From UHGV virus genome UHGV-0315046: 36,193 nt of DNA. One strand, 5' to 3'. Below the pieces are notes generated by a model. The model was given only the letters and a program-made list of their open reading frames with translations, was not told where the DNA came from and did not search any database. Origin of the DNA: a virus. A program made the position numbers and the translations under genes. Numbering within the stretch: the stretch's first letter is position 1; each line of letters opens with the position of its first letter. Shown here piece after piece: positions 684 to 10,131 of this stretch.

Positions 684-2531
684 TTATAATGATGATATTA
701 AATAGTATTCAACAAGTGTTGGTAAGGAAACACCAACAGGTGTTGGTCTTGATATTGTTATTGTTGTTCCTGAAACTGAAACAGTGTCCATTGAGTTTGC
801 AGCATCAGTTGGAATTACGCTGGCAGAATATATGACGCCAGAAATTGGGTTTGGGATGTCTGCAGTTCCTGATGTAGCTCCGGGTGACATAGGTACAGTT
901 ACCTTTCCTCTAGTTAATTTATTGTTATTAACCCCAAAGTTATTGTTTCTATCTTTTGGTGAGTTTAATAAGGTAAGTGATGTTATGTAATTACCGTTCA
1001 ATGAGAGACCGTCAATATCATCAAACAACAAATCACTAGCAAACATACATCCATTGATATTAATATTTCTTGATGTTTTTGAATAAATTGATTTATCACC
1101 ACCAATTATATTTACTCCCAAAACATTAACATTACTGACATTGTTTAAAGATATACCTATATTGTTATTGATAGGGTTATTGTTTTCACACCTAATTTCC
1201 ACTCCTTCTATATTACGAAGAACTGAAGGCGTCTGAGATCTAAAGTCTATTCCAACAAACTGATTAATGCTGTCACCTTGTGCGGCAATCCAGCAATCTC
1301 TTACAGAAAAAACAGAATTGTTATTTTCAAGAATTATCCCAGTTGACCCTACGAAATCAATATCGACATTCGAAAGATGCATATAAAGGCTACCTTTTAC
1401 CCATATCCCAACGTTATTTGAGATACACATTGTCTCACCATCAATAATTATCCCCTCGCTTATCACTTCACCACCAGACCATGAGTAAGTTTCTGGTGCA
1501 ATATCTATTCCTATAGACGATGGTTGAGACAATCCCTTTCCTGTGAATTTACATCCTGATATATGTATACTAACACACTGACCAAGCAATCTAAGACCAA
1601 TATTACACCCACTAGCTCGGCAGTTTGTCATTGAGCTGTGCCACCAGCCTTGCATTTCAAAACCTATTGAACAATTTTGTACCGTGACGCAGTCAAAATT
1701 AAGAGCGTAAACTTGCCTTATTACTGTATCGCTTTTTTTTAAGGTAGTTCCTATCCCCTTCACTATATCGTTTCCAGTAATGGTTATGTCACGAATAAAT
1801 GCACCTGCTGTTGTAGGGCCATAATCAAAACATATAATATAAGCATTACTATTACTTAAAATATCTCCTATTGGCCGTATATGAGTTCCGTTTCCACATC
1901 CGAACAAATTAATTCTATCAGGGATAATAATAGTTTCACTAATTCTATACTCTCCTGCTGGAAGAAATACATTACATCCAGATGGATATGAACTCTTTAG
2001 GTCTTGAAGACAGTTTTTAATTGCTGTTGTGTCATCATTGACGCCATCAGCTTTAGCTCCCCAACTGAAAACAGAAAAGGTCATTGCATTAAACAAATGT
2101 TGAGTCTGTGGAACCGCTCTCGGAAAAGGTTGTTTAACAGCAATTAGAGAATCTCCCATTCCTTCGGATGGGCTTGATAACCTTTTTTCAAGCTGATCAG
2201 GATCATACTTCAGCACATTCGGAAAATAGAACTGCTGTGCACCATACGCATCATAAACAGCCATAGAATGGCCTTGCACAGTTACGAATTTGGCAATCTG
2301 TCCGTTATATACAGGATACCCGCCAGCGTTAATGATGATTGGTTGCGAAACAGGAACGTGAGAGCCGTCTTCATTCTCTACATAAACCTGAATCCGGTTT
2401 TCAGGATTTACCGGGTCAGTGTCAATTTTCCCGATATAAATTTCGCCATTGGCTACGGCTTTAAAAGAACGCGCCATAGTGAAGAGTTGCGAAGGCATAC
2501 TCACTACAACATTGGCTGTAATGTCTGTCAT
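684..2531 (-). CDS. Tailspike protein: P22 gp9-type N-terminal head-binding domain fused to a divergent beta-helix receptor-binding domain
   Basis: 615-aa ORF. The first ~110 aa ([29 protein letters not shown]...VLKYDPDQ) match the conserved P22/Sf6 tailspike head-binding domain as I recall it; the remainder is Asn/Gly/Ile-rich with repetitive beta-helix character and lower GC. Confidence 0.9.
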
Positions 2532-2709: not shown

Positions 2710-3624
2710 TCAGTAGTTATGTACTGAAGGAGGTAATTCTTTATTCTTAAGTCTCATCCATGCGGAAAGATTCGTTGGTCCGTCTGGCTCATTAATATCA
2801 ATATCTCGTGTGTGGTTTATTAAAACGTCTCTCGCCATTCCTATAACATAAGAGAACTCATGACCGTAGTCGTAGCATCTGCCGGAATAGTTCGATTGAA
2901 TTTGTTTCAGCGCCGGATACAGTTCGCGGAATAATGCCTGTGAGCGGTTGGCATAATCCCATAACCATACAAGGCTGTTTGCTTCTTTTGCAGAAAGCTC
3001 GTTGGTTTTCTTCTCTTGTTTGCCGATTAACTCGCCTTCAAGCGGAACGCGAGCTGCAAGTGACAGAGCTTCGGTAAACTGCTCATCGCTGATTTCTTTG
3101 TATGAACACCCAAAATGAGATTTCAGTGACGACCACATGGTGATCATCGCCTTAGCCTGTTTTTCTTTTGGCAGAGACTGACCGCGACTCATGACGAGTT
3201 GTTTAATGGCTTCCTGCTGTTCAGTGGTGATTTTTCCCGGCAACGCCTTTTTAGCTTTCGGTGTATTTCCGTAAGACCCCGTTTTACGAATGGATGGCAA
3301 AACTTCAGCTGTCACCCATTTGCGGAATTTGTGCGGGACTGAACCTTTATTGACGGCATCACGGCAGCGCAGAACCAATGTATACATACCTGATTCGCTC
3401 ACAATGCTTAAATTCTGCTCACCACCAAGGGTGTAACTTAAAGTTACTCCCTTCTCATCGTCATCAAGTGCAGTAAGCGCCTTGCGTGAGTTAGTCAGGG
3501 TTAAAGCATCACAAACATCTTTTGCTACAAACCACGGCTCACCGCACTTGTTGATGACGCGGATTTCACTGTCGCCGAATTTGAAGATGGTGAAATCGTT
3601 TTGTGCCTTTGCTATACTTTTCAT
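2710..3624 (-). CDS. ant: Antirepressor Ant (immI region)
   Basis: 304-aa ORF with an N-terminal Bro-N/AntA-like segment ([15 protein letters not shown]), placed between arc/mnt and the tailspike as in P22 immI. Confidence 0.7.
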
Positions 3625-3686
3625 GTCAATATTTCCTAATCCGATTTGTTGATACCGAAGCCCTGACTGTTACAGCAGTTGGGGCT

Positions 3687-3878
3687 TCAACTTTTATCAG
3701 CGACTTCAACTGGAATACTCTCTAGCTTTTCATCTAACCCCTTCTCGCCATGCATGAAAATAACAATATCTGTAACGCATGAGTCACAAATTGCTTCTTC
3801 GGTATTTTTTGACACAACAAAGCCCCTGCCAGTCGTTTCTTTACTACACCCACAAAAACAACATCTGCGGTTTTTCAT
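3687..3878 (-). CDS. Small Cys-rich (zinc-ribbon-like) protein between arc and ant
   Basis: 63-aa ORF with CCFCGC...CDSC (CxxC...CxxC); its ATG overlaps the arc stop as ATGA, suggesting translational coupling. Confidence 0.45.
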   Translation of the reverse strand: MKNRRCCFCGCSKETTGRGFVVSKNTEEAICDSCVTDIVIFMHGEKGLDEKLESIPVEVADKS

Positions 3879-4027
3879 ACCACTACCCCCTCTCTCTTCA
3901 GGCTGTCCAGCAATCGCTTAATCACTTCCGAGTTAAACGACCGGCATTCTTCTTTGGCCTTTCCTGTAATCGCATCTTTTAGCGACTGAGGCATTCTCAC
4001 CAAAATTCTGCTAACTTCTTTTTCCAT
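3875..4027 (-). CDS. arc: Arc-like ribbon-helix-helix repressor
   Basis: Start refined to the internal Met (MEKEVSRILVRMPQSLKD...) preceded by GGTGG. RHH pattern hydrophobic-R-hydrophobic-P...NGRS-NSE resembles P22 Arc; divergent to mnt. Confidence 0.7.
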   Translation of the reverse strand: MEKEVSRILVRMPQSLKDAITGKAKEECRSFNSEVIKRLLDSLKREGVVV

Positions 4028-4136
4028 ACCGCCACCATGTGAGTTATTGTGAATCACAAACATATCACTGTGACTATATCAAGTCAAAATTTTTTTGAAT
4101 ACACTGTGATATCAATGTGATTATCACGGTGTAAGT
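4028..4136. promoter_or_regulatory. Divergent Pant/Pmnt promoter-operator region
   Basis: 109-bp spacer between divergent arc and mnt starts containing palindromes TTGTGAaTCACAA, TGATATCA and GTGATtATCAC, consistent with Arc/Mnt operators. Confidence 0.5.
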
Positions 4137-4391
4137 ATGACGAAGGTTAGAGACATAGCCCCATATAGCGTAAGAATGCCAGATAGCCTCAAGCGCGACC
4201 TGACCATAAGAGCATCGAAAAACGGACGCTCATTAAATTCAGAAATAGTTATGATCTTGCAAGCTGCTATTGATGAAGAAAAATCACCAAGATCAATAGA
4301 AGGTTTTGCTCAACAAGAATCTGAAAAATTTAGGGAGGCTCTTCTTAAGACTCTCAGTAGCATGTACGGAGAAGATAAAAAACCCACCTGA
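4137..4391 (+). CDS. mnt: Mnt-like ribbon-helix-helix repressor
   Basis: 84-aa ORF; N-terminal RHH (YSVRMPDSLKRDLTIRASKNGRSLNSEIV) resembles P22 Mnt in length and motif. Confidence 0.75.
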   Translation: MTKVRDIAPYSVRMPDSLKRDLTIRASKNGRSLNSEIVMILQAAIDEEKSPRSIEGFAQQESEKFREALLKTLSSMYGEDKKPT

Positions 4392-4399
4392 CGGCGGGT

Positions 4400-4849
4400 T
4401 TAGTCAAACATAGTGTTTCTAAAGTCTCTCGCATACCCTGCTAACACTCTCATTCTATTATGATTGTTAGCAGACATGTGAGCTACAGGATGAAAAAGAG
4501 CAATCAATGAATACCTGTTCTCATCAAAAAGATTTTGTGCATAAACGAGAGCGGTATTGGATGTTTTATGCCACTGCAACTTTTGCGGTGTGCTGATATC
4601 TGTGCCATTTTTTATTGGCTCAAATTTATTTTCACCAATTGCTAAATGAAGGTGCATAAGACCTGCATCTTCAATATCAGGAGGACGATGATAAGAGGTG
4701 TCTCTGCCAAAATAGCTGGGCAACGTTCCCGTAGACTTGTAGATGATAAAATCATCTACAAGTGTTTGTTTTAAATCAGGAAACTCAACAAAAACCGGGG
4801 AGAAAAAATAGTCAAAACTATCCTGATTATATTCCACGGTTACTTGCAT
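4400..4849 (-). CDS. YafO-like toxin candidate (ribosome-dependent mRNA interferase family)
   Basis: 149-aa ORF. Motifs DFIIYKSTGTLPSYFGRD, MHLHLA, ALVYAQNLFDE and NNHNRM align with my recollection of E. coli YafO; not verified by search. AT-rich relative to flanking structural genes. Confidence 0.45.
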   Translation of the reverse strand: MQVTVEYNQDSFDYFFSPVFVEFPDLKQTLVDDFIIYKSTGTLPSYFGRDTSYHRPPDIEDAGLMHLHLAIGENKFEPIKNGTDISTPQKLQWHKTSNTALVYAQNLFDENRYSLIALFHPVAHMSANNHNRMRVLAGYARDFRNTMFD

Positions 4850-4857
4850 GTTTTACC

Positions 4858-5424
4858 TCAGTGGAAGTTACCAGAGTGAAACACACGAGTCCCGTGCTCA
4901 GCAAGCGCACGCAAACCAGCCATATCTACGGAACTATCAAAAACAACCGGAACACATGAGCGTTGTTTAATAAGACTATTCAGGTTAGTTACGGCAGATC
5001 TAGCATCAGCAACAACGATATAGATATCTCTTGCGATCTCTTTAAAATCAGCAGAAGCTTCTTTGAATACCGATTTCATTGCCCCTTCAAGTCCTCTCAA
5101 TTGATGCTCTATCAATCGAGACTTTTCTGGTTCAATGATAGACAACACATTGTCTACATTCTCATCGGTAGCGTTTGCAAGAACACGATAAGCGTATTTC
5201 AGCATTCGAGACAATTCTTTAATCGAAGACACCGCCTCATGAAGCTCATCATTAGCCCGTTCACTGCTGAATGAGGATTGATGGTAAGCGTGCTGAACGT
5301 TATCAGTAACAACCACCTCACAACTGAACGCAGAAGCTTGCTGTAATAGCAAACCTATTGCGACTCCAGCTTTGGCAGCGTTCAAGCTAAACATTTCATC
5401 AATCCCATTAGTCTCATTGCTCAT
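4858..5424 (-). CDS. Hypothetical protein, upstream partner of the YafO-like gene
   Basis: Start refined to MSNETNG..., preceded by AAGGAGG at ~6 nt. 188 aa, predicted mostly helical, no recognised motif. Stop lies 9 bp before the downstream gene start, same strand. Confidence 0.6.
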   Translation of the reverse strand: MSNETNGIDEMFSLNAAKAGVAIGLLLQQASAFSCEVVVTDNVQHAYHQSSFSSERANDELHEAVSSIKELSRMLKYAYRVLANATDENVDNVLSIIEPEKSRLIEHQLRGLEGAMKSVFKEASADFKEIARDIYIVVADARSAVTNLNSLIKQRSCVPVVFDSSVDMAGLRALAEHGTRVFHSGNFH

Positions 5425-5599
5425 ACAAACCTCCTTCTTATCGGAGATTATCAATAGCTATGTATCCATTGAATACACGCTATGCGCAGTAATTCTACGT
5501 CACGTGATATCATTATGCAACCACCGTTCTATCACCGACTAACTTTACTCCCACTCCTATACATCATCTGGTATCCTGCTCAAAACTAAGGAGGTTGGT

Positions 5600-5929
5600 G
5601 TGCTTGAATGGTTTCTGTTGGCTGCATTAGTCGTTTCTGGTTTGGTGTATGAGTATCGAATGCACTCTCTAACAAAAAAAATAGGAATTCTAGAAAACGA
5701 ATATTGTGCTCTCAAATCCTCACTGGAACGTGAGCAAGGGGACTTAAAAATCTCTCTGTCTAGCATTGAGCGTTCTATAGAGAGCTTAGAGGATAAGGTT
5801 GAGCGTATAAAGAATGAGGATATTCATGATATTAAGGACGACATATCCTTCTTAAAATCTTGGTTGAAAAATGTTGGGAAAATTGCCACATCAACACGAG
5901 ATAAGCTCAATCCATCCATGGATGACTAA
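5600..5929 (+). CDS. Small membrane-anchored coiled-coil protein (moron)
   Basis: GTG start preceded by AAGGAGG. N-terminal hydrophobic helix (LEWFLLAALVVSGLVYEY) followed by heptad-like charged repeats; stop abuts the convergent ejection-protein gene. Confidence 0.55.
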   Translation: MLEWFLLAALVVSGLVYEYRMHSLTKKIGILENEYCALKSSLEREQGDLKISLSSIERSIESLEDKVERIKNEDIHDIKDDISFLKSWLKNVGKIATSTRDKLNPSMDD

Positions 5930-8050
5930 TTACTCCTGTGCCATTCCGCTTAGCGATGCCACAATTCCAGCTCTTGCTAAACGCTGGAACTCTTCGTTTC
6001 CTAGTGCCTCGCGTATTGCTTTTACGGCGGCCTTATTTGCCATAAATCTGCGTTCCGCCGCCGCTAATGCACCATCACTTGCCCCAACCTTAACTGCCTT
6101 TGTTGCCTCTTGAACAGCCTTTTCAATAGCGTAACGACCGCTTCTAGTTGCGGATAATTTCGCTATCGCTCCTTTTGCCATTGCATCAATTGCCCCACCT
6201 GCAGCGCCACCCGCTATTGCTCCAATAACGCCTCCTCCAGAGAACCCTGCGATAGTGCCAGTAGTTCTAAAAGCGCCAGACAATGCGCTCTCTAAAACTG
6301 GATGAAGGCCATTCTCAAGAGTGCTAATGGCTGGCATAGATCGCCCTGTCTGTTCAACATATCGAAGTGGCTTTGTTGCTGCTCGTGCAAGTTCTCCGTA
6401 TGAACTTGTAATCCTGCCAAGTTCTGGAGAATATCGACTAATTGCCTTCACGTTTTGTGGGGTAAGAATAGTCGCGATATGCTTAATTCCAGCCTCTTCA
6501 GACTTACCTCCGCGTACCCCTTGCGACATTGCATCTTGTAATATTGATGCAATTGCTGGCGCGCGTTCCGACTCAGGTAGGGCGCTTATTATTTTATGGA
6601 ACTGACCTGTTCCACTTTTTGCTGAACCCTGTAACGCCTTAGATCCATTAGTTACCAACTGATCAGTTGCAAGGTCTCTACCAAACGCTGCTTCAGCCTG
6701 TTCTTGTGCTGTAAATCTTGCCTTTGACAGATCATTAGCTTTTTGCCAGTCATCAAGAAAACCGCCATTTTGAGCCATTATGCGCATATCTTCCGTTGCT
6801 GCATCACGAAGCTCAGCCATGCGCCTTGCCGTATTTGCCTCACCAGACCTTATATACTTCTGCTCTGCGTCAGCAAGTTTACTTCGCCATGCCTTCATGG
6901 CATCAAACGTGATTCCTTTTTTACCAGTTTTAGCATAAGCAGATGCGAATTGTTTCATCTCAGGAGTTAGCGGCATGCCAGCCAAAATATCACCCTGAAT
7001 TGTAGCGTTCAGGTTTGACATTCTGGCCTTTGCGTCAGGCATCGTGGAGCGGACGCTATCCCATGCGGCCTTTTCTGAATTTTTCATTTTATCAATACTT
7101 GCCAAAACCCTTTGTTTTATGGCTGCACTTTTTTCTGATGCAGTTCCTGCTTCAGCCCCAAACTCATCCAATGCTGAGTTAAATTTCGACTCTATTTCAC
7201 TGAATGCTTTGGTGTGTGCATCCTGTGTAATTCCGGGCTTTGACGCCAGAATCCCCTCCGCCTGAGCAAGACCACGACTACCTGATCTCATGCCAGGAGT
7301 TAATGCGTTGATATCTATTCCAGCAGTATCTGCTGCTTTTGCTATTTCGTCTGACACATTAGCTGACTGTCTGGCAATAATCTCTCTTCCTGTACCAGAC
7401 TTTGCCATTTTCGAAACATCAGCAGCGGAATTTATTGCCCCGCCACCAAGAACTTGAGGTGATTTAGAGGTTAAGATCCTTCCAGCCCCAGAAAGTATCC
7501 CCTGAGCACCAATATTGATACCACTGTTAATGGCAGCATTTTGTGCAAAGTCGCCCTCCTGATTTGCAGCATCAGCAAGAGAACCTGCAATCATGTTTCC
7601 TGCGGAACCGATATCTCCAGCGAGCTTTGCTGGCGCTCCAGCAGCTTTTGCTGCTGTGCCAATTGGCAGGAGATACCCACCAATTGTTTCACCGGCTTGC
7701 GCGTAAGGGTCTGTCGGTCGATCGACTGGACGATAGACATCATCCAAAACCTTGGGGCCACCAAGCCCATGGCTGATTGCATTAATCAGACTTGCGCCAC
7801 CCTGCAATACGTCAAATGGTATGTTTACCAGACCACGGCCAGCCTGTTCTGCAATTTGCCCTGCACTTTGACCACCAGTGAGCCAGTCAGTGGCTTTTCC
7901 TACCAGAGATTGTTCTTCTGGCTGCGATTGGTTTTGAGTGGATTGATCACCAGAAGACAGCATCTGAGCAATGCGACGTGCTCCCTCAGTATCGCCGGCA
8001 GCATCAGCATTCCTTAACGCCGTCATCAATTGTTCACGACTATAGGCCAT
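5930..8050 (-). CDS. Ejection (internal virion) protein, P22 gp16-like
   Basis: 706-aa Ala/Gly-rich protein at the gp16 position after the gp20 homolog; longer than P22 gp16 (~609 aa). Confidence 0.7.
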
Positions 8051-9426
8051 TACTGCCCTCCGAGATATTTGCTAATTAATTCGTCATCGGACAATTGCTG
8101 TTGAGGTTGGCTATCGCCATAACTTGAGGAAAGAAAACGTTTTGCCGCAGAGTTCAATGATTCACCCTTCTTAACATCCATCCCCATGATGTTTCGGTTG
8201 CGATCAGATTGTCCTGGGCTGCCGTTTGCACTCATCCACTCAGACCTAAACTCGTTGAACTTCGCGTTATTACTTTCCATTTTTGCCATCCCCCTTAACC
8301 ATCGAGCCATGACCATTGGATTATCCGTTTCGCTTGGAATGCCTTTCCTTGCAAACTCAATATCCTTATCTGATGCAGGGCCGGGAGGGAGAAGCTTGGT
8401 TGCCTGCGCATTGGCTAGTTGGTTGAATCTAATCCGCATATCTCGGAGGTAGTTATCTTGCCCCGTAAGCTTAGTGAACATATTTTCAGCGTTACCGAAC
8501 AAACCAGGAGTTGGCTTCTCCTTCTCCAGCGTGTCAGCGAGCGTTGTCATTGAATCGGCAGCATTACGACTAGCTGCCGCATCACCTGCTGATTTTTCTA
8601 TAGCCTTTTCCATGTTCACTGATAATTTTGGCGCAGCATTAATAAGTTCCTCGGCCTTTTTTTGTGCCTGTTGTACTTCAAAACCGAATTTCTGCTTATC
8701 AAGTGCCAGTCTTTCTGCTGCAAGTCCGTGTCCGGTCATTGCTGACTGATAGGAAAGGTTTTGCCCTCTCGCCTGAAGTGCCTCGCCAGCCTGATTGCTG
8801 CGGATTGTCTCTGCCAGCCTGCCTCGGTCAATTTCACGACCAGCCATCTTGTCCTGAACATTGAAGTAATCAATCGGACCAAGCGCAGCCATCCCAAGAT
8901 GATCAACAAACTCACCAAATCCTGAAGGATTCTGCTGATACATCTGAGCAACGCTGTTAGGGTCAACACCGACGCGAGTCAGTTCCTTGGCGTTGTTTTG
9001 CAGCCATGATTGCATTGCTTCTGGAGACGATGACGCAAGGCGTGCTCCAGCCGCTAAGGTGCCGATAGAATTACGCTGCTCTTCATCAATGAATCCCATG
9101 CCTTTACGAACGGATTCAATCTGGTCTGGATATTGAGTAGCCAACTGACGCAAAGCACCGCGATCACCAGACGCATAAGCATTAGCGTACGCCTGCTGAA
9201 ATTCTTTCTGCCGCTGAGCCTGCTTTTCCTGCTGAAACACCCCCGCAATACCTGAAAGGCCTTGCAAAGCAGTCAGCCCAACATTGTTAGCGCCTGAACG
9301 CTCAATATCATTGTTCTGCCTGATAAGCTGAAGCGTATTGCCGATGTCATTTACGTTCGGAGCGTTTGAGTTGACACCACCGATACCAGCCAACAATCCG
9401 CCATTTGTTCCTTGCCAAGTAGCCAT
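8050..9426 (-). CDS. Ejection protein, P22 gp20-like
   Basis: 458 aa, synteny gp7-gp20-gp16; start/stop overlaps with neighbours. Confidence 0.7.
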
Positions 9427-9435
9427 GATTACCCC

Positions 9436-10131
9436 TTAAAACAACGATCCAAGCAGGCCAAGTCCGCCGCCAATTGCCGCACCTAACCCAGTGCCAAGTC
9501 CTGGAACAATAGAGCCAAGAGCAGCGCCAGTCATAGCCCCTGAAGCTCCGCCGCTAATTGCTGTCTGAAGACCTGATGGTTTATTGGCATTAGCAGCGGC
9601 AAGAGCCGCACTTTGCTGAGAAATCTGACTCATGTTGTTGGCATATGTCTGCCCGGCGTTTGCCTGACCTTGCAGTGCGCCAAGACCAATATTTGCCAGA
9701 TTCTGGTAGTTGTTCATCTGACCAGACAGCCACTGCTGACCAAGCGTTGGTGCGATTGTTGCTAACTGATTGCCGGTTGCAGTGGAACCCAATCCACCTG
9801 TTGCTTCCGCTGCAGCCAGACTCTGATAGCGAGCCTGACCAGCAAGATCTTTGTACTGCTGAGAGTTGTAATACTGGTTAAGTGCCTGACCTTGCCCCTG
9901 AAGAGAGGAAAGATCCTGCAATTGTGATACATACTGCTCCGCAAGAGGCGTGAACGGAGCAAGGTTTTTCATGATCGTCTGCCACTGCTGATTTTGCAGG
10001 TCTGCTGCATACTTCTGAGCTTCTGCGGCATACTTTGCGCTTTTATCAGAACTGCCACCTTTCCCGCCTTTTTCAGGGCAATAAGGTTCCTCGCCGCGCA
10101 GTTTTCTGCCCAGCTTAAATGCATATAACAT
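9436..10131 (-). CDS. Ejection protein, P22 gp7-like
   Basis: 231 aa, Gln/Gly-rich with a Gly-rich hydrophobic C-terminus; size and position match gp7. Confidence 0.7.
   Translation of the reverse strand: MLYAFKLGRKLRGEEPYCPEKGGKGGSSDKSAKYAAEAQKYAADLQNQQWQTIMKNLAPFTPLAEQYVSQLQDLSSLQGQGQALNQYYNSQQYKDLAGQARYQSLAAAEATGGLGSTATGNQLATIAPTLGQQWLSGQMNNYQNLANIGLGALQGQANAGQTYANNMSQISQQSAALAAANANKPSGLQTAISGGASGAMTGAALGSIVPGLGTGLGAAIGGGLGLLGSLF

Follow-up and report, generated by a model that had tools for sequence, protein, structure and literature searches.

What is a small membrane protein gene doing at the tail end of a phage ejection gene, on the opposite strand, in the position where phage P22 carries its superinfection-exclusion gene sieA? 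The question is raised by hkcB, a 109-codon open reading frame (ORF) in the virus genome UHGV-0315046, whose 36,193 nucleotides are here called the window. The window represents a phage or prophage of the P22-like group (Lederbergvirus), whose late operon occupies the minus strand; hkcB lies on the strand of mnt and opposes that operon. An earlier note, made from the DNA letters alone, had proposed that this membrane protein 'in the sieA slot' could be an exclusion factor that blocks injection. We find that hkcB stands behind a leader shared almost base for base with P22 sieA, that at least 11 unrelated gene families occur behind this leader, and that the choice of gene follows the type of ejection protein encoded next door. 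This genomic context lends weight to the exclusion hypothesis, which we weigh below against other explanations.

The leader of sieA in front of hkcB

The 34 bp that end in the GTG start codon of hkcB (5569-5602) match, at 33 of 34 positions, the sequence before and including the start codon of P22 sieA. Two limits of homology meet here. Homology between the window and phage HK620 starts at 5569, 31 bp upstream of the GTG, and homology to E. coli prophages with the same left-hand cassette stops at 5602, the last base of the GTG. Since these limits overlap, the segment TGGTATCCTGCtcAAAACTAAGGAGGTTGGTGTG is a mosaic joint. The P22 record places its annotated sieA promoter directly upstream of the shared block, and the hkcB of HK620 matches the P22 upstream sequence, including the annotated PsieA region, over the aligned extent. 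A 50-base search with the leader stretch returned 69 phage records, P22 and close relatives included; two leader scans of species-representative genomes gave nothing relevant. In P22, sieA with 85 bp of upstream DNA suffices for exclusion, in a study that does not discuss hkcB (Leavitt et al., PMC10883804).

By gene order and alignment, then, hkcB is a positional alternative to sieA: preceded by the sieA leader, it falls in the interval from gene 16 to gene 9 of a P22-like prophage and is the last gene on the mnt strand, convergent on ejection gene 16. The 'sieA slot' of the earlier note was well placed, and the identity of the leader makes the placement more exact than that note could know.

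A catalogue of genes behind the leader

An exact-pattern scan of IMG/VR for the leader gave at least 120 loci, in 118 of which the ORF beginning at the leader GTG was complete. These 118 ORFs were grouped by BLAST, and envelope targeting was judged by a crude hydropathy count. Among the matches listed, to which all counts in this paragraph refer, the leader precedes at least 11 unrelated ORF families, and 10 of the 11, SieA being one, appear to be envelope-targeted by transmembrane (TM) helices or a signal peptide. The largest group combines a TM helix with a coiled coil (35 loci: 12 of HkcB type 1, 10 of HkcB type 2 and 13 of a 109-aa relative that resembles HkcB in its N-terminal 67 residues only). 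It is followed by a 129-aa signal-peptide protein (22 loci), a 62-aa protein with two TM helices and SieA (11 loci each), a 140-aa soluble protein and a 75-aa two-TM protein (8 each), a 106-aa one-TM protein (7), a 116-aa four-TM and a 149-aa one-TM protein (5 each), a 99-aa signal-peptide protein (4) and a YobH-family protein (2). Apart from YobH, the slot families carry no Pfam domain.

Slot genes combine almost freely with at least nine upstream contexts, and hkcB itself is found after at least seven. On these comparisons the leader works as a recombination linker, behind which at least 11 unrelated small proteins, almost all of them apparently envelope-targeted, have been swapped in P22-like prophages. 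As in morons, hkcB is replaced in related phages (here by the alternative slot families) and deviates in base composition, with a GC content of 38% as against 48% in genes 16 and 20; the region left of gene 16 has been called the 'ant moron' (Villafane et al., PMC2629481). In the limited literature that was searched we found no description of a shared sieA leader with a catalogue of alternative envelope proteins, which does not prove novelty.

The catalogue also touches on sieA itself. All 11 families begin at the same GTG, 5 nt after AAGGAGGT, which in P22 sieA is the start at position 2532 of locus L008. This common start favours the 164-aa form of P22 SieA, whose start has been described as uncertain (PMC10883804).

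Linkage between the slot gene and gene 16

In contrast to the free assortment upstream, slot families are almost perfectly correlated with the type of the ejection protein gp16, the product of gene 16, as sorted into five clusters by its C-terminal part (IMG/VR loci L011-L130; window 5930-6200). HK620-type gp16 is partnered by both types of HkcB, the 140-aa family and part of the 149-aa family; P22-type gp16 is partnered by SieA, the 62-aa and 129-aa proteins and the 109-aa relative. HkcB was seen only with the former type and SieA only with the latter. The gp16 proteins of HkcB phages are at least 70% identical over their full length and resemble P22 gp16 in an N-terminal segment only. The linkage may also reflect a functional match between the blocker and the ejection protein, which is an appealing though speculative reading of these associations.

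In a BLASTP comparison, HK620 gp16 and CUS-3 gp16 were 76.7% identical over their full length (L001 4362-6530 and L004 3822-5981), whereas the published figure is 26% (PMC10883804). If our value is right, the argument of that paper on the role of gp16 in the partial resistance of HK620 to SieA rests on far fewer differences.

Identity and distribution of hkcB

The ORF at 5600-5929 is, by homology and codon-level constraint, a genuine hkcB gene of P22-like phages. It is also an ordinary, already catalogued gene, annotated since the HK620 genome of 2001, with no function assigned in the literature searched. The window protein is 97-98% identical to HK620 HkcB and to a protein of vB_EcoP-611R6 (97.2% to HK620 by tblastn), and a family of unknown function, phrog_5962, covers its residues 2-109 (E 4.1e-61). 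HkcB type 2, found in epsilon34, CUS-3 and SEN22, is about 50% identical to the window type (46-50%). The hkcB frame is the only one open across the region in both types. Substitutions between the window and epsilon34 genes number 44, 25 and 56 at codon positions 1, 2 and 3, and the ratio of nonsynonymous to synonymous substitution rates (dN/dS, Nei-Gojobori) between the types is 0.25-0.27 overall, falling to 0.13-0.16 in the final 40 codons although dS is about 1 there.

The GTG start and the AAGGAGG ribosome-binding site described in the earlier note can be read directly at 5600 and 5588-5594, and this Shine-Dalgarno sequence is invariant across the alignment except for one base in CUS-3. 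So can its observation that the two convergent genes abut: the hkcB TAA (5927-5929) is followed with a gap of 0 bp by TTA (5930-5932), the stop of gene 16 on the minus strand. The same zero-bp abutment, antisense to the late operon, holds in 25/25 HkcB loci; distant relatives leave 3-4 bp.

The family is narrow, with 26 clusters among 5.8 billion proteins, and is restricted to P22-like phages, without chromosomal relatives. An HkcB profile run against 1.84 billion cluster representatives gave 12 matches at E <= 0.001 and revealed no wider family: seven are small proteins that align as HkcB relatives (one truncated, P0022, and one decayed, P0031) and the rest are long coiled-coil proteins. Among complete E. 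coli genomes, about 82 of 5426 carry hkcB type 1 and roughly 35 more the other type, every copy labelled 'hypothetical protein'. None of these genomes matches at least 80% of window 4300-6400, that is, the cassette plus hkcB; the only fetched viral contig with this combination is L114 from IMG/VR (99.95% over 2101 bp).

Some database entries depart from the 109-aa form. HkcB versions of 134, 171 and 179 aa (L002 5158-5562; P0005, P0027, P0028) carry N-terminal extensions, and the alignments indicate that these are start over-calls that read through the leader into unrelated upstream DNA. In two short metagenome contigs (P0023, P0024) the last ~45 HkcB residues stand behind an unrelated, non-hydrophobic N-terminus. 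Their joint, at about codon 66-70 (window 5808), is where nucleotide similarity between the hkcB types starts, which points to a second recombination joint within hkcB.

Architecture and predicted topology of HkcB

HkcB is very probably a single-pass, membrane-anchored coiled-coil protein, as the earlier note had suggested; hydropathy, heptad statistics and a structure model agree on this. The best 17-residue Kyte-Doolittle window is residues 1-17 (1.94; 2.28 in type 2), the only strongly hydrophobic stretch of a protein whose remainder is 38% charged. As read from the sequence, this N-terminus has neither a basic n-region nor an AxA cleavage site. Residues 40-67 reach a heptad score of 0.825, compared with 0.44 +/- 0.10 in shuffled sequences, and none of 2000 shuffles scored as high. 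AlphaFold2 models a single uninterrupted helix over residues 2-103 (mean predicted local distance difference test, pLDDT, 84). Foldseek found no PDB match to the model, a lone helix being uninformative as a query, and Pfam gave weak generic coiled-coil matches only.

Conservation is concentrated at the C-terminal end, where columns are invariant or nearly so (alignments A2 and A4) and the motif is kept in the distant relatives P0030 and P0032. The conserved positions are E73 D74 H76 D80 I82 L85 W88 L N91 V92 G93 I95 A96 T S98 T99 R100 D K102 L N104.

Under the positive-inside rule, charged residues flanking a membrane helix indicate its orientation. In all HkcB relatives the N-terminal tail is 1-3 residues long and lacks basic charge, and the 10 residues past the helix carry a net charge of +2. 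An uncharged or acidic tail followed by positive charge would place the N-terminus outside and the C-terminus inside, which weakly suggests that the coiled coil faces the cytoplasm, not the periplasm.

Expression signals

The leader opens with TGgTATCCT, a candidate extended -10 element for the slot gene that was picked up in a permissive scan, together with a weak candidate, ATATCA-17-TATCAC, whose TATCAC lies at 5530-5535. TGgTATCCT is present in the leader wherever the context is divergent or calls for an independent promoter, with one exception (L136) taken up below, and it is lacking in CUS-3, L131 and L132, where a co-oriented gene precedes hkcB. In CUS-3, two mnt genes open a co-oriented run that ends with hkcB; in L131 the gene stands directly downstream of mnt on the same strand, as it does in the distant relative P0030, where 36 bp separate the two. 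The P22 record annotates Mnt as a repressor for the maintenance of lysogeny. With relatives of hkcB co-oriented behind such a gene, expression in the lysogen is the natural reading of the gene order.

The best sigma-70 match of the region, TTGAGA-17-TAGAAT (10/12), runs antisense inside hkcB (5715 to 5687, minus strand). It is probably due to chance, because such hits are overall no more numerous than in shuffles and the cassette is also found without hkcB elsewhere.

What HkcB may do

Our preferred explanation, held tentatively and at somewhat less than an even chance, is that HkcB is a prophage superinfection-exclusion protein, unrelated to SieA, that blocks the ejection conduit at the inner membrane. 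In this scheme the prophage would transcribe hkcB in the direction opposite to the late operon; HkcB would insert in the inner membrane and oligomerise through its coiled coil; and it would interfere there with the gp7/gp20/gp16 conduit of an incoming P22-like phage, so that DNA entry is stopped. Topology, oligomerisation, target and phenotype, like expression in the lysogen, are things that we infer. Exclusion of superinfecting phage is plausible. The constant association of hkcB with HK620-type gp16 would make phages with ejection proteins of that type the likeliest targets. A P22 hybrid with HK620 ejection proteins is excluded only ~10-fold by the SieA of P22 and of HS1 (PMC10883804), which is consistent with HkcB filling the role of SieA for the HK620 type. 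Two thirds of sequenced P22-like phages lack SieA (PMC10883804).

Several points weigh against this explanation. A common slot implies a common expression logic, not a common function; SieA is the sole characterised occupant, and one slot family (the 140-aa protein) has no membrane signal. Physical adjacency without intervening homology would by itself suffice to link a slot gene to its gp16. CUS-3, which carries hkcB type 2, is fully excluded by P22 SieA (PMC10883804), so a failure of SieA on HK620-type gp16 is not general. The predicted cytoplasmic coiled coil makes a block in the periplasm unlikely. The translated HkcB sequence has no similarity to SieA and lacks its FxRYPxEAxxFNK motif, and no defence or exclusion family was found for it in PADLOC, Pfam or NCBIfam. 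A consensus sigma-70 scan of both strands of the spacer returned no promoter, and in L136 TGnTATCCT is missing in spite of a divergent neighbour, which leaves the promoter assignment uncertain. A consensus scan likewise found no terminator after hkcB, so that its transcript would run antisense into gene 16.

A bolder version, which we consider rather unlikely, extends exclusion to the whole catalogue. The leader would then mark a plug-and-play exclusion locus at which at least 11 unrelated envelope proteins are exchanged behind a common linker of promoter, ribosome-binding site and GTG, each matched to its gp16, with HkcB as the blocker of the HK620 type, acting through an oligomeric coiled coil on the cytoplasmic face, unlike the polytopic SieA. 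Because each slot protein is tied to one gp16 type, a blocker and the matching injection machinery would be inherited as a unit. We are about as doubtful that HkcB is instead a lysogenic-conversion moron, which would alter the envelope or fitness of the host (compare lambda Bor and Lom, or YobH/YebO-type proteins) and have no effect on incoming phage. Its low GC content, its location apart from the late operon and the rapid flux of the region (PMC2629481) all fit such a role. One slot family is of YobH type, with chromosomal relatives that are not known exclusion factors, and many morons encode proteins whose functions have nothing to do with phage (PMC3594210). It is harder to reconcile with an exclusion protein as the only characterised occupant of the slot, with the tight linkage of slot genes to the ejection-protein type, and with a family that is confined to P22-like phages and has no relatives on chromosomes. 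Unlikely, to a further degree, is some other defence effector, abortive or membrane-perturbing and triggered by infection, like RexB or the membrane-anchored staphylococcal Pdp, in place of a protein that bars DNA entry. A single-pass anchor with an oligomerising coiled coil is a frequent build of membrane-active effectors, and the neighbouring slot holds cassettes of toxin type (YafO here, HicA-like in SEN22). HkcB assorts freely with these upstream cassettes, though, and so is not part of them; PADLOC gave only a weak coiled-coil match, and beside its one hydrophobic helix no amphipathic segment of pore type is evident.

The constant position next to gene 16 raises two further explanations. 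HkcB might serve the lytic cycle, in the loading of ejection proteins, in gp16 function or in the timing of lysis, as the zero-gap adjacency in 25/25 loci and the exclusive linkage to one gp16 type would allow; the anchor and coiled coil look superficially like an Rz i-spanin or FtsB/DivIC, and the 109-aa relative has a sub-threshold DivIC match (E 0.004). We think this improbable: hkcB is oriented against the late operon, sibling phages carry unrelated replacements and phages Sf6 and APSE lack the whole region (PMC2629481), so hkcB is not essential; HK620 ejection genes work in P22 after transplantation of genes 7, 20 and 16 only (PMC10883804); and HkcB itself has no Pfam match to DivIC or to spanins. 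Finally, the ORF might be unexpressed, its conservation owed to a recombination linker or to an element in DNA or RNA where gene 16 ends. The last ~55 nt of hkcB (5876-5929) and gene 16 as far as ~6055 are indeed mostly 80-100% identical across types, and the consensus scan found neither a canonical promoter nor a terminator. Yet dN/dS is well under 1 along the entire ORF, the C-terminal third keeps its amino acids at a dS of about 1, length, helix and motif persist where identity is as low as 46-50% and also in relatives that lie in other contexts, and the Shine-Dalgarno sequence is perfect and optimally spaced, all of which makes an unexpressed ORF very improbable. HkcB was also considered as a mimic of an ejection protein and rejected, having no similarity to anything else in the window.

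If HkcB and the other small envelope proteins behind the leader do block injection, the locus would amount to a library, assembled by nature, of unrelated inhibitors that all act on one machine for DNA delivery. Every one of them could be used to probe the passage of the gp7/gp20/gp16 conduit through the inner membrane, and slot proteins would predict phage resistance in roughly 2% of E. coli genomes. If HkcB has no such role, hkcB is an ordinary moron gene.

The spacer and the neighbouring YafO cassette

To the left of hkcB lies a divergent cassette of two genes, for a 188-aa protein and a YafO homologue. The earlier note had put the spacer at 145 bp; it is in fact 175 bp (5425-5599), the boundary at 5455 having stemmed from a TTG extension of the left gene to 5454. 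That gene most likely starts at ATG 5424 with an AAGGAGG of its own, and RefSeq annotates the identical protein at 188 aa. Most of the spacer (5425-5568) travels with the cassette and co-occurs with five different slot-gene families.

The 188-aa gene is always paired with a YafO-like gene, a pair that is conserved down to 54% identity; in E. coli and Salmonella P22-like prophages the cassette always lies between mnt and the slot gene. At the same position SEN22 has a HicA-like cassette, to whose partner protein the 188-aa protein is unrelated. The YafO homologue matches NF007377 with E 4e-22 and 79 bits, under the equivalog cut-off of 153. AlphaFold2 gives the 188-aa protein six helices (pLDDT 73), and a fold search was uninformative. 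A role as a DNA-binding antitoxin is not supported, the protein being all-helical, with no ribbon-helix-helix or helix-turn-helix domain and no informative fold match. Judged by its proteins, the cassette is different from the canonical YafN-YafO pair. We also rejected HkcB as a third component of the cassette: cassette and spacer precede five slot families, and hkcB occurs in at least seven upstream contexts.

The earlier note had further pointed to near-palindromes in the spacer as possible operators. They exist: TGTATcCA-T-TGaATACA lies at 5461-5477 and TCACGTGA at 5500-5507, and the spacer holds three perfect 8-mer palindromes (ATAGCTAT, TCACGTGA and TGATATCA). An operator role is a different matter. 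When the spacer is put through dinucleotide shuffles, 17.5% of them contain an 8-bp arm with at most one mismatch and 52% contain one or more perfect 8-mer palindromes; three perfect ones arise in ~3% of mononucleotide shuffles. The spacer was aligned with those of three diverged cassettes. TCACGTGA and TGATATCA, which lie between the -35 and -10 of the candidate cassette promoter, are not kept in the diverged spacers, and TGTATcCA..TGAATACA, which sits within an ATAGC...GCTAT repeat, is kept only partly. As operators of hkcB the palindromes were therefore dismissed, being at chance level, poorly conserved and located in that half of the spacer which accompanies the YafO cassette, whichever gene lies downstream. 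Identity between the spacers (66-73%) is close to that of the flanking coding DNA (61-80%), so constraint on the spacer is moderate.

Setting in the window

Features of the region are collected in Table 1. The window holds a complete immI region (2710-4391), with sar, ant, arc and mnt plus an extra 63-aa ORF; an Rfam search over 3000-7000 matched only the sar RNA.

Table 1. Features around hkcB, in window coordinates.
Feature	Position	Strand	Evidence or remark
615-aa ORF in tailspike position	684-2531	-	
ant (Bro-N + P22_AR_C)	2710-3624	-	
sar RNA	3626-3692	+	RF00262, 69 bits
63-aa ORF between arc and ant			phrog_7150
arc	3875-4063	-	
mnt homologue, the other gene on the hkcB strand in the region	4137-4391	+	PF03869 Arc, 7e-9
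YafO-family toxin homologue (149 aa)	4400-4849	-	PF13957, E 3.4e-22, above cut-off
188-aa all-helical protein, first gene of the divergent cassette	4858-5424	-	phrog_8416, E 2e-96; no Pfam
Cassette-linked part of the spacer	5425-5568		Footprint against cassettes 54-65% identical in protein; permissive scan; RNAfold
Hairpin AACCTCC/GGAGATT	5428-5449		From the same spacer alignment; in predicted 5' untranslated region; would sequester the Shine-Dalgarno of the 188-aa gene
Inverted repeat ATAGC..GCTAT	5454-5483		Conserved in diverged cassettes; in predicted 5' untranslated region
Cassette promoter candidate, -35 TTGCAT and -10 TAGAAT	5520-5515, 5497-5492	-	Conserved TTGCnn-17-TAnAnT
Conserved slot leader TGGTATCCTGCtcAAAACTAAGGAGGTTGGT + GTG, common to P22 sieA; recombination joint	5569-5602	+	33/34 identity
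TGgTATCCT, candidate extended -10 for the slot gene	5569-5577	+	Permissive scan; 4/6 plus TG
Shine-Dalgarno AAGGAGG of hkcB	5588-5594	+	5 nt ahead of GTG; read from sequence
hkcB coding sequence (GTG start, 109 aa, TAA stop)	5600-5929	+	HK620 HkcB / 611R6, 97-98% aa identity; phrog_5962, E 4e-61
N-terminal hydrophobic helix LEWFLLAALVVSGLVYE, predicted signal anchor, codons 2-18	5603-5653	+	Hydropathy; AlphaFold2 helix
Strongest heptad-repeat (coiled-coil) segment, codons 40-67	5717-5800	+	Heptad score against shuffles
Conserved C-terminal motif ED.H...D.I..L..WL.NVG.IATSTRDKLN, codons 73-109	5816-5926	+	Alignments; dN/dS 0.13-0.16
Gene 16 homologue (ejection / DNA transfer protein, 706 aa)	5930-8050	-	phrog_770, E 2e-205; 94% identical to HK620 gp16
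Gene 20 homologue	8050-9426		P22 gene correspondence
Gene 7 homologue	9436-10131		P22 gene correspondence

Comparison with known systems

The nearest known genes are HK620 HkcB (HK620p55, NP_112088.1), epsilon34 gp14 and CUS-3 HkcB, which are the same gene as that of the window and agree with it in length, GTG start, leader and zero-gap abutment on gene 16. What varies is the upstream neighbour: the 188-aa gene and YafO in the window, hkcC in HK620, a 322-aa gene in 611R6, a HicA-like cassette in SEN22 and an mnt operon in CUS-3. Searches of Pfam, NCBIfam, PADLOC and PHROGs with HkcB gave generic coiled-coil noise apart from phrog_5962; the sole PADLOC-DB match is a weak coiled-coil one to DpdH (E 5e-4, 18 bits).

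With P22 SieA (types A, B and C) HkcB shares the slot, the strand, the leader, the Shine-Dalgarno sequence, the GTG and the linkage to a type of gp16. SieA is expressed from a prophage region and its product is in the inner membrane (PMC10883804); HkcB is a predicted membrane protein. SieA is a protein of 162-164 aa with 3-4 TM helices, HkcB one of 109 aa with a single helix and a coiled coil, and exclusion has been demonstrated for SieA only. The two fall in separate BLAST clusters, and with P22 SieA as tblastn query no match in the window had an E below 4, so that the window has no sieA. Compared on homology, TM number and motif, HkcB is not a member of the SieA family.

Two other kinds of system come close in build or in situation. 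FtsB/DivIC and the Rz i-spanins, at ~100-150 aa, likewise have a heptad coiled coil directly after an N-terminal membrane helix. They have the N-terminus inside and the coiled coil in the periplasm, whereas the charges of HkcB suggest the opposite topology, and the genomic context also differs. FtsB/DivIC (PF04977) is not among the Pfam matches of HkcB up to E = 1, and the 109-aa slot relative reaches DivIC at a sub-threshold E of 0.0037. HK97 gp15, a YebO-like protein, is similar to HkcB in kind, as a small inner-membrane moron protein encoded in a region of virion genes (PMC3594210). Its sequence is unrelated, it lies in a siphovirus tail operon and it has bacterial YebO relatives, whereas HkcB has a long coiled coil and no chromosomal relatives, and the YebO family is absent among its Pfam matches up to E = 1. 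Produced by the prophage, HK97 gp15 keeps the genome of an incoming phage from entering, an effect that depends on the injection apparatus of that phage (PMC3594210).

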